Source: Candidatus Micrarchaeota archaeon (GTDB lineage Archaea > Micrarchaeota > Micrarchaeia > Anstonellales > Bilamarchaeaceae). From it: a DNA stretch of 64,000 bases. Location of the stretch: contig JBFMEZ010000029.1 in assembly GCA_040753215.1 (NCBI GenBank), forward strand, positions 29,394 to 93,393, written 5' to 3'. A program made the position numbers and the translations under genes. Every line of letters begins with the position of its first letter. Position 1 is the stretch's first letter. The notes below the pieces were generated by a model. That model searched no databases. It was not told where the DNA came from and saw only the letters and a list, made by a program, of their open reading frames with translations. This document shows positions 8,891 through 12,195 of the stretch, piece after piece.

Positions 8891-9589
8891 TCAAGCAATG
8901 CTAAATATGCCAGAATTGACCTGTTTCCCACCGGTTGCCCTTTCCATCTGTTTTTTGGCTTCTTCCATCGCTCGAACCAGTAGTTCTATAGGGGTGCCGG
9001 CGGGGTGGTAAATCAGCATCAAAACTTCGCTGGTTTCTAGGGTTATGCAGGTCCTGCCAGAATCTGCGGTAGGCCCGCCAAATATCGAGTTGGAATCTAT
9101 TGTCACGATCCGGTTCTCGGCATTCATAGGCTTGCCACCTATCCCCGCATAAGTCTGGCCCGGACTGCCGATTGACACTGTCACGGTTTCCCCTTCTATT
9201 TTCCCGATGTCGTAAACCCCGCAAGGGCATCCGGTCTGAAGTGATACTACATTGTTGATGTCAACAACGCTGTTCACCCGATAGATGCCTGAACCTCCAA
9301 CTACCCTACGCATAAGCGCTTCGCCGGATGGCCGCTCCTTGGTCGGGTCAAGCCCAACGCTTGAGAAAAGCGTACGAATTCCTTGTATAACCGAGTCGCC
9401 GGAAATCTTGGATGGATCCGCGAACCTTTCTCTCACCTTCCTGCATGCAGAATCAACCGCCTGGTCGACGAGCGGGTTCTTCTTTTGCACCTTAACCCCG
9501 GTAAAACTCATGTGCCCCAGGTTAAGCCCCTTCAATCTTTCCCTTGCGCCCTCATCCACCTTAAAAGCCATTTGCCTCATCAGATTCAC
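8891..9589 (-). CDS. B3/4 (PheT-like tRNA-binding) domain protein
   Basis: 232 aa; overlaps next gene by 4 nt (operon); family call from memory of stand-alone B3/4 proteins, moderate. Confidence 0.5.
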   Translation of the reverse strand: MNLMRQMAFKVDEGARERLKGLNLGHMSFTGVKVQKKNPLVDQAVDSACRKVRERFADPSKISGDSVIQGIRTLFSSVGLDPTKERPSGEALMRRVVGGSGIYRVNSVVDINNVVSLQTGCPCGVYDIGKIEGETVTVSIGSPGQTYAGIGGKPMNAENRIVTIDSNSIFGGPTADSGRTCITLETSEVLMLIYHPAGTPIELLVRAMEEAKKQMERATGGKQVNSGIFSIA

Positions 9590-12195
9590 CTCAATCTCCC
9601 CACGTGCAGGACGCCGATCCCGCCAAACTCAATGCGCTCGTAATCATAACCTGCATCAACCATAAGCCTTGACACGACTTCAGGATGATATGCATATGAC
9701 CACAGGCCATCATCCGAACTGAACAAAACCCCGTCGCGGGTCTCGTTCATGATTATGTTTTTGTATCCGCTATTTTTATAATACCACGACCGTGCCTCGT
9801 TTGCACGCAAATCTGTCCCATAGGTGAATACTGCTATGCCGACACCGGCTTTTCTTGCGGCATCGATTGTCTGTTCGGGCCTCGCAGGTATGTTGCCAAA
9901 ACTATTGAAAGGGAAGCAAGCGACTATTCTAGACGCGCCGCCAGGAAACCTTTTTACAAATTCCGGCAGATTGAGAACGTCCTCGACATGTGCTTCGGCA
10001 GCCTGGCTACCATGCATGCGTTTGATTCTTGAGTTCAAGCCCTCAACCAAGCCCGGCACGATGTCAATCCCAACATATCTCTTTCTGGCATGCACCGCTT
10101 CATCAAGAAAGAAGCCGATATCCATACAGCCTACTTCAATCAATGCATCATACCTGCCGTCCAAAAGCAGCGTTTTTGCCAGCTCCAGCTCCGAAGAAAG
10201 GAAGTCCTTTATCCCCTCTGGGTAATTACGCTCATCCACCAGGCTAAGGCCAGCTCCGGAATAGAACTCACCCCGCGGAATAGATGGGGCTGGAAGGGCT
10301 GGACTTCGTCCAGGTATCCTTGCCTCGGCCCTTTGCATGTTTCTTGCGGCCCCCCATTTTGTAAAGGTCTCGTTGTGAATGAACCAAATGTCCTCTTCAG
10401 TCAATCTTGCCGGGATGACCCCGGGGAAGGCTTCCTCAAAAAATGAATAAGGAGGAAAAACTGGAGGTGCTGTGGTTTGCGTGAATGCTGTCCCTACATC
10501 CGCCTGTACGCCATCCGCCAGGGTCAGCCTTGTAGCCGGGTGGTATGTTACTATGTTGGGGCTCGCTACTAGCAGGAGACCATCCTCGATCAGGGCGGCA
10601 GTCTCGTCTATTGTTTTCTGCATTGTCTGCCTTGTTTCTCCGGGCAGCCCGAACAACACCGATGAGCCGACCATTATGCCAGCATCCCTAGCAAGACCAA
10701 GGGCCAGCCTGACCTGCGCCAGCCAGTCTGAAAGTCCTGCCTTGCGCCTCTTGTCTATGCCTGACATGACCTCTTCTGCGAGGCTCTCTATGCCGATATA
10801 TAAATAGGAACAGCCCGCGGAACGCAATCTGGGCAGCAGTTCCCGCGATGCATCCTGCCCATAGATACGGACAAGATGGTTCACCGTGAGCTGGGCGCCC
10901 CACTTGATGCTAATACCTGCTCGCCTCATCTCAAGCATCGCTTCCAGCAACGAATTTATCCTGGCGAGGTTTCCGCCGCATAGCACCGGATCATCAAAGA
11001 AAAAAGCCTCGGCGCCGTATTTTGTGTATGACCGCAGAAGGCGTTCAAAGAATTTTGGATCCGAGGATGTTGTCATCCGACCAACTACGGAAGCTGACTC
11101 GGAGCAATATATGCATCTGAACGGGCATGAGTGGGCAGTGTTTACGTGCGCGGTGAGTTTGGAGCGCCCATTGGAATCCTTGAACACAGGAAACCTGGCG
11201 CGTATCGCAAATGCATCGTATGGGAACGGAAGGTCCGCAAGGTCTGTAGCACCGCCACCAGTCATCACCGATTCCGAAGTTAAGCCATCAGCTAGGTAAG
11301 TTATCGCCGCGGACCCTTTGGCAATCTTTAAATCGTCCAAATTCTGAGACACGGCCGAAACAATCTGCTCTTTTGTCACGGATTTTGTTTCTATGTCCAT
11401 GGCAACCGAGATGCATTTCATGAGAAAGTCAAGAGCATAGTACCCTTCCCCGGAAATAACAAAATCCACTACGTTAGGGACTTTCCCTTCTGCCATTGCG
11501 GCTATTATGCTGCCAGGACCATGGGACACGGAACCGCCCTTCACCCGTATTGTTTCGTCTGCATGCCGCCCGCCGAGGATGATTATGGTTTCCGGAGCCA
11601 TTTGTTTTATCATGCTGGAGATTTCTATTGCGTAAGGATGGGCAGGAGACACACTGCTTATCAACACGACTTTCGGGCGCACGCAGGCAAAAAGGCGCTC
11701 CAACAATGCGCGGGAATCACTGTTCCATACCCTAGGGTCGAAAACAAGCTGGTCGGTATTTTGGCGTTGGCCCTCAAATTGAAACGGGGCTTGGGATTGC
11801 GAAGCGATGATTTTCCGGTATTCCTCGTCTGGAAGCATGTCCCAAGCCGGGTAAATGTCATTGTAAGGTCCAACTCTAATCTCAGGAAATCCTGCGCGCG
11901 ACCCCCGTTCATCTACTGTTTGGAGTACCTGACTGATAGGGTAGCTAAGCGCGGTGTACAGGCACATCGGATCACCCGGAAATTCTATCTTGCTATCTGC
12001 CGACGCCAGTGCCGGAGCAACAATAGAAAGAACCCGATAAGATGCTGGCTTCTCCGCTTTCGCCGCAGGGGTTAGGCAACTCTCCATGAGTTTATTCGCC
12101 AATTGCCGCCTTCTTAATAAGAGCATTTGCTTGTATTCGTCCCTGGTGAGATGGCCCAATCTATTTTGGAGTTTTCTTAGGACAGCATGCATCAA
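9586..12195 (-). CDS. fusion protein: B12-binding domain + radical SAM domain + C-terminal class I SAM-dependent methyltransferase domain
   Basis: 869 aa; VVLISSVSPAH..IIILGG (B12), CPFRCIYC (CxxxCxxC), C-terminal LIEVGCMDIG / YVGIDI / RIVACFPFNS MTase motifs. Confidence 0.7.
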   Translation of the reverse strand: MMHAVLRKLQNRLGHLTRDEYKQMLLLRRRQLANKLMESCLTPAAKAEKPASYRVLSIVAPALASADSKIEFPGDPMCLYTALSYPISQVLQTVDERGSRAGFPEIRVGPYNDIYPAWDMLPDEEYRKIIASQSQAPFQFEGQRQNTDQLVFDPRVWNSDSRALLERLFACVRPKVVLISSVSPAHPYAIEISSMIKQMAPETIIILGGRHADETIRVKGGSVSHGPGSIIAAMAEGKVPNVVDFVISGEGYYALDFLMKCISVAMDIETKSVTKEQIVSAVSQNLDDLKIAKGSAAITYLADGLTSESVMTGGGATDLADLPFPYDAFAIRARFPVFKDSNGRSKLTAHVNTAHSCPFRCIYCSESASVVGRMTTSSDPKFFERLLRSYTKYGAEAFFFDDPVLCGGNLARINSLLEAMLEMRRAGISIKWGAQLTVNHLVRIYGQDASRELLPRLRSAGCSYLYIGIESLAEEVMSGIDKRRKAGLSDWLAQVRLALGLARDAGIMVGSSVLFGLPGETRQTMQKTIDETAALIEDGLLLVASPNIVTYHPATRLTLADGVQADVGTAFTQTTAPPVFPPYSFFEEAFPGVIPARLTEEDIWFIHNETFTKWGAARNMQRAEARIPGRSPALPAPSIPRGEFYSGAGLSLVDERNYPEGIKDFLSSELELAKTLLLDGRYDALIEVGCMDIGFFLDEAVHARKRYVGIDIVPGLVEGLNSRIKRMHGSQAAEAHVEDVLNLPEFVKRFPGGASRIVACFPFNSFGNIPARPEQTIDAARKAGVGIAVFTYGTDLRANEARSWYYKNSGYKNIIMNETRDGVLFSSDDGLWSYAYHPEVVSRLMVDAGYDYERIEFGGIGVLHVGRLR

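Follow-up and report, generated by a model that had tools for sequence, protein, structure and literature searches.

The 64,000-nucleotide stretch analyzed here (the window; positions 29,394 to 93,393 of contig JBFMEZ010000029.1 from a Candidatus Micrarchaeota archaeon) carries an operon of two minus-strand open reading frames (ORFs). One encodes an 869-residue protein in which a predicted cobalamin-dependent radical S-adenosylmethionine (SAM) enzyme (rSAM) is joined to a predicted SAM-cyclizing enzyme, and the other encodes a 232-residue stand-alone B3/4-domain protein (coordinates in Table 1). By analogy with characterized bacterial enzymes, the fusion protein is most likely a bifunctional 4-methylazetidine-2-carboxylate (MeAZE) synthase. 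As a whole, the operon would be a route to free MeAZE that is independent of nonribosomal peptide synthetases (NRPSs) and that comes with a protection factor, an enzyme editing MeAZE–tRNAPro; we put the probability of this combined reading at about 0.6. The underlying pathway is already known, and the operon is not a new kind of system. Work on bacteria from 2018 to 2026 established the two-enzyme pathway to MeAZE: a cobalamin-dependent rSAM (Orf29, BnvC, or VioG) acts first, followed by a VioH-type cyclase that converts 4''-methyl-SAM to MeAZE and methylthioadenosine (MTA). VioG and Orf29/BnvC have all been assigned to the C4''-methylation of SAM. The two halves of the fusion protein would be consecutive steps of this pathway, because the Orf29 lineage makes 4''-methyl-SAM and VioH consumes it.

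The identity of the C-terminal module is carried by sequence, profile, and fold comparisons that agree with one another. A phmmer search of the Protein Data Bank (PDB) with residues ~640–863 finds AzeJ (8RYD/8RYE/8RYF, E = 1e-20) and VioH (8RYG, E = 1e-19), and a profile built from four fusion C-termini matches VioH over its full length (E = 9e-41) and AzeJ with E = 9e-25. When the AlphaFold2 (AF2) model is searched with Foldseek, the top eight PDB matches are all AzeJ or VioH (VioH, TMt 0.85 with a root-mean-square deviation of 2.7 Å; AzeJ, 0.78–0.83), and ordinary methyltransferases rank far below them (E~1e-7). AzeJ and VioH are azetidine-2-carboxylate (AZE) synthases, which have a methyltransferase-like fold and cyclize the aminocarboxypropyl part of SAM (PMC11794875). 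Their signature consists of the motifs FY, PFNxxGN, and RxxYYxxC, a GxxxG rather than a GxGxG at strand beta1, and a ribose-binding Asp that ends beta2. In AzeJ, Tyr18 is the gating residue, Phe134 provides the cation–pi contact, Asn139 binds the carboxylate, and Arg172, Tyr175, and Tyr176 lie in RxxYYxxC (PMC11794875).

The window protein was compared with this signature motif by motif. The FY motif is found as F644-Y645 (EFYSG), is invariant in all four fusions, and aligns to the DFY of VioH, and PFNxxGN is found as P762-F763-N764-S-F-G767-N768, identical to the PFNSFGN of VioH. The third motif reads R802-S-W-Y805-Y806-K-N-S809, which keeps the Arg and both Tyr residues and replaces the Cys with Ser; three other fusion proteins (P0002–P0004) have Cys here, and no role is given for this Cys in the available part of the family's description (PMC11794875). 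The ribose-binding Asp is D711 (YVGIDI), and the beta1 motif is G689-CMDI-G694, a GxxxxG one residue longer than the GxxxG of AzeJ and VioH. An earlier note, made from the DNA letters alone, had described this module as a class I SAM-methyltransferase domain. The class I fold stands, but the methyltransferase identity does not: no Pfam or NCBIfam methyltransferase model passes on the domain (the best is Methyltransf_25, E = 0.12), motif I is GCMDIG and not GxGxG, and the module falls in the AZE-synthase family. A Diphtheria_C match in the same scan is spurious. Thus, as judged from motifs and the structural model, the module is a predicted VioH/AzeJ-type AZE synthase, that is, a SAM lyase with a class I methyltransferase fold that would not transfer methyl groups. 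AzeJ, from the azetidomonamide pathway of Pseudomonas aeruginosa, shares this fold and the catalytic signature (the Tyr gate, the cation–pi Phe, the Asn, the Arg, and the Tyr-Tyr pair), but it uses unmethylated SAM, has no rSAM partner, feeds an NRPS, and is more distant from the window module than VioH. The cyclase family is rare: a search of 1.84 billion proteins gave 415 representatives at E<=1e-3. Among them, P0320 (869 aa) and P0340 (830 aa) are long proteins that look eukaryotic, in which AZE-synthase-like domains with PFNxxGN and RxxYYxxC are combined with N-terminal WD40-like repeats and low-complexity tails; a term search of the available portions of the AZE-synthase paper and its supplement returned no mention of this architecture.

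The N-terminal module contains the radical-SAM core that the earlier note had seen around CPFRCIYC (Pfam Radical_SAM, PF04055, E = 5e-13, residues 352–530). The motif occupies residues 357–364, and its cysteines C357, C361, and C364 are invariant in 35 homologs. The cobalamin-binding domain that the note had also proposed is backed by fold, since the AF2 model of the N-terminal part aligns in Foldseek with the B12-rSAM structures TsrM, TokK, CysS, and AprD4 over 520–600 columns, but the Pfam B12-binding match stays below threshold (22.9 bits, E = 8e-5, against a cut-off of 32.1). Residues 1–620 of the fusion have matches at 40–45% identity in hundreds of proteins of ~650 aa. A Streptomyces protein in this set, P0114, is 41% identical to the window protein over 606 aa and adjoins a pyridoxal phosphate (PLP)-dependent aminotransferase in an NRPS cluster, the pattern of the methyl-1-aminocyclopropane-1-carboxylate (MeACC) pathway. 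The 90%-identity cluster of P0114 includes WP_079056031 and KUO03048 (RS15 and RS19 of Table S4), which are 64–65% identical to Orf29 (640 aa) (Maruyama et al., 2020). Orf29 (BCD33697) is a cobalamin-dependent rSAM that C-methylates SAM itself at C4'', and not 1-aminocyclopropane-1-carboxylate (ACC). By its sequence, the rSAM module therefore belongs to the Orf29 lineage of SAM C4''-methylases, a membership drawn through the P0114 cluster and not from direct alignment to Orf29.

Orf29, Swb7, and BnvC, which serve the MeACC and cis-MeAZE pathways, share with the window module a length of ~640 aa, an N-terminal extension, the B12 module (predicted for the window protein), and CxxxCxxC. In the Orf29 and BnvC pathways, 4''-methyl-SAM is passed to a cyclase, as predicted for the window protein, where the cyclase is fused; however, Orf29 and BnvC work with a PLP-dependent MeACC synthase or a DUF364 cyclase, whereas the partner in the window protein is VioH-type. 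The N-terminal extension is marked by invariant residues (PGDPM, Y111, D113, N146, D148, P154, and W157). The rSAMs encoded beside VioH-like genes in bacteria and the candidate phyla radiation (CPR) belong to a different, ~520-aa lineage that is 25–31% identical to the window rSAM and does not have this extension, with alignments to the fusion that start near residue 160. The label "VioG-type" for the ~520-aa lineage is based on a published VioG–Orf29 identity of ~23% and on the presence of VioH-like genes at the same loci; the vioprolide locus itself is absent from the 27 loci returned by a cyclase scan with one genome per species. Hundreds of ~650-aa Orf29-lineage rSAMs in Chloroflexi and other bacteria have no cyclase nearby and might use methyl-SAM differently. 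For instance, in one Chloroflexi metagenome-assembled genome (MAG; locus L008), the rSAM gene neighbors encode a GT87-like protein, a major facilitator superfamily transporter, and a UbiE-type methyltransferase.

The fusion itself is real. The earlier note had named a frameshift artifact of two genes as one way in which its idea would fail, but the same collinear architecture recurs in at least five other sequences: P0002, P0003 (Burarchaeum australiense), and P0004, at 43–50% identity, the Iainarchaeum MAG locus L011, and P0225. The AF2 model of the whole protein has a confidence score (pLDDT) of 85, and the two modules are joined by a disordered linker that is gapped and variable in the alignment. 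No RNA-binding module is found in the fusion by a Pfam scan or in the AF2 model. Fusion of an rSAM to this cyclase is seen with both rSAM lineages (P0225 with the Orf29 lineage and P0261 with the ~520-aa lineage), so the coupling is convergent and arose by fusion at least twice. The operon structure described in the earlier note is also borne out: both minus-strand ORFs lie exactly where it placed them, with the GTG start of the B3/4 ORF over the TGA stop of the fusion ORF in an overlap of 4 nt (AGGTGA). The B3/4 ORF has a second candidate start, an ATG 5 nt past the fusion stop, which is the one chosen by NCBI. In a Candidatus Micrarchaeota MAG, on a 108-kb contig, the identical proteins carry the annotations "radical SAM protein" (793 aa) and "phenylalanine–tRNA ligase beta subunit-related protein" (229 aa). 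The 793-aa annotation begins at M77 and drops residues 1–76 of the fusion (11965–12195). Because residues that are invariant among the 35 homologs (V55, L56, P61, and P73–P76) all precede M77, the long ORF appears to be the real one and the M77 start too far downstream. The true start is thus likely the TTG/ATG at 12195/12192, and the NCBI start is probably mis-annotated.

The order of the two predicted reactions follows from the specificity of VioH, which efficiently converts (4''S)-4''-methyl-SAM to trans-MeAZE and does not convert SAM (Nagano et al., 2026). Because VioH takes 4''-methyl-SAM and not SAM, C-methylation precedes ring closure. The N-terminal module would abstract the C4'' hydrogen of a substrate SAM and add a methyl group from methylcobalamin to give 4''-methyl-SAM, as for Orf29. 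The C-terminal module would then bind 4''-methyl-SAM in a kinked conformation, such that the alpha-amine attacks C4'' in a 4-exo-tet closure that yields MeAZE and MTA. Fusion through a flexible linker would pass the unusual SAM analogue straight to the cyclase. On the strength of homology, signature motifs, fold, and convergent fusion, we regard these two steps as likely. The nearest known counterpart is the VioG/VioH pair of vioprolide biosynthesis in Cystobacter violaceus, which likewise combines a B12-rSAM with a VioH-type cyclase to make MeAZE via 4''-methyl-SAM (predicted in the window) and whose cyclase is the best match of the C-terminal module. The window system differs in having both activities in one polypeptide, an rSAM of the Orf29 lineage, no NRPS, and a DPANN archaeal host. 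The product of the fusion could be either cis- or trans-MeAZE.

The second protein of the operon is a B3/4-domain protein, as the earlier note had it (Pfam B3_4, E = 2e-18), and its closest characterized relative is CtdA. CtdA was the first stand-alone B3/4 enzyme and removes canavanine, a toxic arginine mimic, from tRNAArg. A profile of 19 B3/4 sequences finds the CtdA structures 9F7E (E = 1e-13) and 9MKL (E = 1e-9) ahead of all editing domains of the beta subunit of phenylalanyl-tRNA synthetase (PheRS). The AF2 model (pLDDT 94.7) matches CtdA over its full length in Foldseek, with TM scores of 0.82/0.83 to 9F7E and 0.81 to 9MKL, against ~0.6 for PheRS editing domains. Both proteins stand alone, are ~230 aa long, and keep two CtdA residues that are invariant in the family: N105, near the aminoacyl–ribose junction (N113 here), and G116, required for activity (G124 here). 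The identity between them is only 17–18%, however, and the rest of the pocket differs. E118 and E191, the deep-pocket acids that CtdA requires for canavanine, are replaced by Tyr (Y126 and Y194), C166, which contributes to specificity, by G171, Q173, required for activity, by D176, and Y104 by N112. Because E118, E191, C166, and Q173 are replaced, the window protein is not expected to be a canavanyl-tRNA deacylase, and another aminoacyl specificity is expected. Thus, on sequence and model, it is a deacylase scaffold with a differently lined pocket and a putative aminoacyl-tRNA deacylase, probably in the uncharacterized branch outside CtdA-1 and possibly of the type 'CtdA-2'. Most of the substitutions recur throughout a broad family of proteins outside CtdA-1; N112 alone is invariant specifically in cassette-linked and archaeal members. 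The two systems also differ in gene context, since the window B3/4 gene lies inside a biosynthetic cassette and the CtdA gene lies next to catabolic genes.

The association of the B3/4 gene with the cyclase extends well beyond this archaeon. The scan for cyclase relatives described above gave 27 loci, and 32 loci were counted when all cassettes are included. The 27 scan loci span Micrarchaeota, Iainarchaeum, Nitrosopumilus, many Saccharibacteria and other Patescibacteria, Clostridia, Bacteroidota, Ignavibacteria, Proteobacteria, Acidobacteria, and Actinomycetota, and in almost all of them the rSAM, B3/4, and cyclase genes stand side by side, in three gene orders. The rSAM and cyclase genes are adjacent in almost all of the 32 loci, and B3/4 adjoins the cyclase cassette in 27/32, or in 28/32 when L006 is counted, where an incomplete next gene begins 1 nt past the stop and matches the B3/4 N-terminus. 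The P0225 fusion has B3/4 immediately upstream, and the P0261 fusion is followed by an EamA exporter. Three cassettes are clear exceptions and have a peptide-forming enzyme next to the cyclase instead of B3/4: an NRPS with a GNAT protein (L022), an NRPS (L035), and an ATP-grasp ligase with a MacB exporter (L020). Because related cyclase clusters feed NRPS or ATP-grasp enzymes, their product is a free amino acid. Conversely, only 2/80 metagenomic B3/4 loci carry the cassette, and close DPANN orthologs of the window protein (50–66% identity) are often orphans in unrelated contexts, among whose neighbors no conserved gene was found. This asymmetry fits an immunity or resistance gene rather than an obligatory biosynthetic subunit. 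When conserved neighbors of the cassette were sought (exporters, ligases, and acetyltransferases), only B3/4 and proline genes recurred, besides antisense shadow ORFs.

The recurrent proline genes are consistent with a proline mimic as the product. In L001 (Burarchaeum) and L002, the rSAM–cyclase/B3/4 pair lies amid genes for proline dehydrogenase (ProDH), prolyl-tRNA synthetase (ProRS), ProC, ProB, and ProA, in an order that is not the same in both. The cassette likewise has proline genes beside it in L021, L040, and L043 (Micrarchaeota-like), L013 (Saccharibacteria), L026 (Patescibacteria), and L031 (Eiseniibacteriota). Altogether, ProRS, ProDH, ProA, ProB, or ProC genes lie beside the cassette in 8/32 loci from four phyla, compared with 1/80 loci with B3/4 only (Fisher p = 1.6e-4, with loci that are not all independent and contigs that differ in length). 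AZE is a documented substrate of ProRS and a mimic of proline. By analogy, the proBAC/ProDH/ProRS neighborhood fits the management of a proline-to-analogue ratio. In the Saccharibacteria MAG at L013, proA, proC, and proB lie immediately beside the cassette (11280–14672); Saccharibacteria usually do not have amino-acid biosynthesis, and these genes may have arrived along with the cassette. On a metagenome contig of 4849 bp (L042), the gene right after those for ProA and ProC encodes a DPANN-type B3/4 ortholog (57% identity), and no cyclase is visible, although the contig ends ~200 nt past the B3/4 gene; this hints that a link between B3/4 and proline genes can exist without the biosynthetic genes.

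From these elements, a third step can be proposed, which is the weakest link of the scheme. MeAZE and proline are constitutional isomers (C5H9NO2), MeAZE mimics proline sterically, and ProRS would mischarge tRNAPro with MeAZE. The CtdA-like B3/4 protein would hydrolyze MeAZE–tRNAPro, and perhaps AZE–tRNAPro, in trans, and such trans-editing by a co-transcribed protein would shield the proteome of the producer. Structural homology to CtdA and co-occurrence with the cassette suggest this step, to which we give an even chance. More speculatively, free MeAZE would probably serve as an antimetabolite against hosts or competitors.

Several points weigh against this reading of the operon. The substrate of the rSAM is uncertain at 41% identity, many of its ~650-aa Chloroflexi relatives have no cyclase partner, and the characterized relatives mismatch in stereochemistry, because the product of Orf29 is the 4''R epimer, not accepted by VioH, whose substrate is the 4''S form. 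In the window cyclase, Ser also replaces the Cys of RxxYYxxC, and the beta1 motif is GxxxxG rather than GxxxG. The enzymology of the pathway is confined to members outside archaea and CPR, and mischarging of tRNAPro has been shown for AZE only, not for MeAZE. With regard to the B3/4 protein, the pocket features Y126 and D176 are common to the entire broad family outside CtdA-1, whose members mostly have no link to the cassette; only N112 tracks the cassette, and the closest orthologs (66% identity) are orphans. An exporter conserved with the cassette was not found among its neighbors. Several of the proline-linked loci come from related Micrarchaeota and are therefore non-independent, and neither ProRS or proline genes nor their remnants were found by phmmer and tblastn in the window, where the AZE module is isolated between insertion sequence (IS) elements. 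A ProB match at 36746–36913 (E = 6e-6 over 57 aa) is, as a guess, the PUA-type domain of another gene.

Other explanations of the operon share part of this evidence. The fusion may make MeAZE or AZE while the B3/4 protein is a general housekeeping protein for trans-editing or tRNA binding that is merely syntenic, or a tRNA-dependent enzyme that uses the amino acid downstream. Close B3/4 orthologs that occur in variable contexts without the cassette would be expected if so, as would the presence of the same core residues in most of the broad B3/4 family, and the mutual exclusion of B3/4 and peptide-forming enzymes beside the cyclase can be read as a choice between alternative consumers and not between protections. 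Chance synteny is, however, hard to square with adjacency in 27–28 of the 32 loci across very distant phyla and in three gene orders; a downstream user would hardly have a hydrolytic editing-domain fold without a ligase or transferase module; and N112 is invariant specifically in the cassette-linked and archaeal members. We consider this explanation unlikely. The rSAM could instead catalyze chemistry other than C4''-methylation of SAM, for instance the methylation or rearrangement of AZE after cyclization or a reaction on another substrate, in which case the fusion would yield some other azetidine derivative, or plain AZE plus something else. It has been suggested that cluster III rSAMs might catalyze modifications other than methylation (Klaubert et al., 2025), and the ~41% identity to characterized lineage members, the Chloroflexi relatives without cyclase partners, and the pairing of cyclases elsewhere with the ~520-aa lineage leave room for it. 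Yet VioH uses 4''-methyl-SAM and not SAM, Orf29 methylates SAM and not ACC, and the order of rSAM before cyclase in the fusion fits the channeling of a methyl-SAM intermediate. In addition, the convergence of two rSAM lineages on one partner suggests that they make the same product, and C4''-methylation of SAM is the reaction assigned to both VioG and Orf29/BnvC. Such other chemistry is therefore quite improbable.

MeAZE could also belong to proline metabolism and not be a toxin, either as an intermediate or storage isomer (e.g., one converted to proline by radical ring expansion) or as a compatible solute, with the B3/4 protein limiting collateral mischarging. The isomerism of the two amino acids, the recurrent linkage to proBAC, ProDH, and ProRS genes, including that in a Saccharibacteria genome, and the lack of an exporter conserved with the cassette would all suit this. 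But a ring-expansion enzyme is not evident, the linked proBAC genes already make proline from glutamate, SAM is an expensive precursor, and the sporadic, IS-flanked module resembles an accessory trait, which makes a role in proline metabolism very unlikely. The earlier note had proposed that an rSAM–methyltransferase fusion modifies tRNA or aminoacyl-tRNA, a lipid, or a cofactor; in such a scheme, the tRNA 3' end would be presented by the B3/4 protein. Its link to aminoacyl-tRNA biology and its view of the operon as one functional unit survive, in keeping with the binding of aminoacylated tRNA 3' ends by B3/4 domains and with the tight operon structure. The proposed uncharacterized methylation does not fare as well, given an AZE-synthase module and a CtdA-like B3/4 protein: the C-terminal domain has the AZE-synthase signature in place of a methyl-acceptor site and is closest to VioH/AzeJ in sequence and fold, the characterized member of the rSAM lineage acts on free SAM, related cyclase clusters point to a free amino acid as the product, and the fusion carries no RNA-binding module. 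This proposal is now scarcely credible.

The same note had pointed to a split version of the fusion at 51745–54056, which pairwise comparison of both proteins shows to be unrelated. The 515-aa rSAM (51745–53292) shares with the fusion only the region of the Cys motif (pairwise E = 0.005), and the similarity of the 255-aa methyltransferase (53289–54056) to the C-terminal domain is not meaningful (E = 0.58); this protein is a canonical class I enzyme (Methyltransf_25, E = 2e-12). The pair is thus a different B12-rSAM with a canonical methyltransferase, neither of them specifically related to the fusion. These two overlapping genes belong to a gene group at 47320–54056 that is not related to the AZE module. 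They are convergent to a class I/II aminotransferase gene (47320–48576) and to a pair of paralogous genes for Cys-rich proteins (524 and 547 aa) without a Pfam match (48573–51726). A double-HTH Lrp/AsnC-like ORF (54189–55193) lies after the gene for the 255-aa methyltransferase.

The region around the IS-flanked AZE module is core chromosome, with genes for aIF5B and a ribosomal-protein operon. A nested IS insertion adjoins the B3/4 gene directly downstream, and on the other side, the stop codon of an IS1595 transposase gene sits in a TATA-like box (TTTATAA) ~40 nt upstream of the fusion start. Expression of the operon may thus be driven from a promoter at the IS end or by read-through from the IS, a promoter reading that we infer from the position of the box. 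The GC content is ~0.51–0.52 around the AZE module (8–14 kb), 0.58–0.62 in the region of the ribosomal-protein operon (16000–30000), and 0.42–0.49 at 32000–36000.

Table 1. Features of the operon, its protein modules, and neighboring elements, with positions in the window
Feature	Positions	Strand	Basis
Gene for the fusion protein (B12-rSAM::AZE-synthase-like, 869 aa)	9586..12195	-	ORF and collinear homologs
Orf29-lineage-specific N-terminal extension (residues ~1-160)	11716..12195	-	Kept in all 35 aligned ~640-aa homologs
Rossmann-like cobalamin-binding module, predicted (residues ~165-300)	11296..11703	-	Sub-threshold Pfam match; alternating strands and helices in AF2 model; fold matches
Radical SAM core (residues ~345-560)	10516..11163	-	Pfam Radical_SAM; CxxxCxxC (C357/C361/C364) encoded at 11104-11127
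Disordered inter-module linker (residues 623-638)	10282..10329	-	pLDDT <50 at 623-625 and 627-638 (AF2)
Predicted VioH/AzeJ-type azetidine-2-carboxylate synthase module (residues ~640-869)	9589..10278	-	phmmer, profile, Foldseek, motifs
Stand-alone B3/4 gene (232 aa from GTG, 229 aa from ATG); CtdA-like putative aminoacyl-tRNA deacylase	8891..9589	-	Pfam B3_4, CtdA profile, fold
IS256/Mutator-family transposase gene, split into 6084-6665 (N-terminal part) and 8003-8881 (C-terminal part)	6084..8881	+	Pfam Transposase_mut positions 8-180 and 215-377
IS3-family element nested in the IS256 gene	orfA 6705-7010; orfB 7007-7882	+	Pfam HTH_Tnp_1; rve
IS1595/ISXO2-like transposase gene, apparently frameshifted into two overlapping ORFs	12234..13102	-	Pfam DDE_Tnp_IS1595 on both ORFs
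tRNA-Ser(GGA), single	36977-37059	-	

Parts of this cassette have been described before. A "cluster III" of AZE synthases was defined by VioH-like genes with a B12-rSAM and an "AA-tRNA synthetase" and includes a CPR clade and rare archaea; its supplementary list contains some of the loci analyzed here (JAHIRA010000092 and JAOTUX010000233) and has no Micrarchaeota or Burarchaeum entries (Klaubert et al., 2025). The "AA-tRNA synthetase" is probably the B3/4 gene, because NCBI names the latter a PheRS-beta-related protein. As candidates for detoxification, the same study lists acetyltransferases, transporters, and hydrolases and does not mention tRNA editing (Klaubert et al., 2025). A prior proposal of a B3/4 deacylase for AZE–tRNA was not found in the literature searched (azetidine with CtdA or deacylase, and CPR/DPANN), the coverage of which is incomplete. 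Three points appear to be new: the single-chain fusion with an Orf29-lineage rSAM in DPANN archaea, the reading of its partner as a CtdA-like deacylase with a non-canavanine pocket, and the recurrent linkage to proline genes and ProRS, along with the observation that B3/4 and peptide-forming enzymes exclude each other.

VioG has resisted expression (Nagano et al., 2026), and a soluble single-chain fusion might serve the study of SAM C4''-methylation in its place; it might also serve the production of MeAZE for peptide engineering. Until now, MeAZE and AZE have been regarded as toxins of plants or as building blocks for NRPSs. Because the operon of this symbiotic, tiny-genome archaeon has no adjoining peptide-assembly gene, a free proline mimic would be its end product. 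The near-obligate CtdA-like partner offers a testable substrate hypothesis, MeAZE–tRNAPro or AZE–tRNAPro, for a large uncharacterized branch of stand-alone B3/4 proteins, and it suggests that the self-protection of a producer can act through tRNA proofreading. It is possible, if doubtful, that the rSAM–cyclase–B3/4 trio is a compact toxin–immunity system of ultra-small episymbionts (DPANN and CPR) and some free-living microbes, in which free MeAZE would corrupt or throttle the translation of a host or competitor and B3/4 would be the first trans-editing factor dedicated to a self-made antimetabolite. If so, part of the uncharacterized non-CtdA-1 branch of stand-alone B3/4 proteins would gain a function, and the orphan B3/4 genes of neighboring genomes would be community immunity genes.

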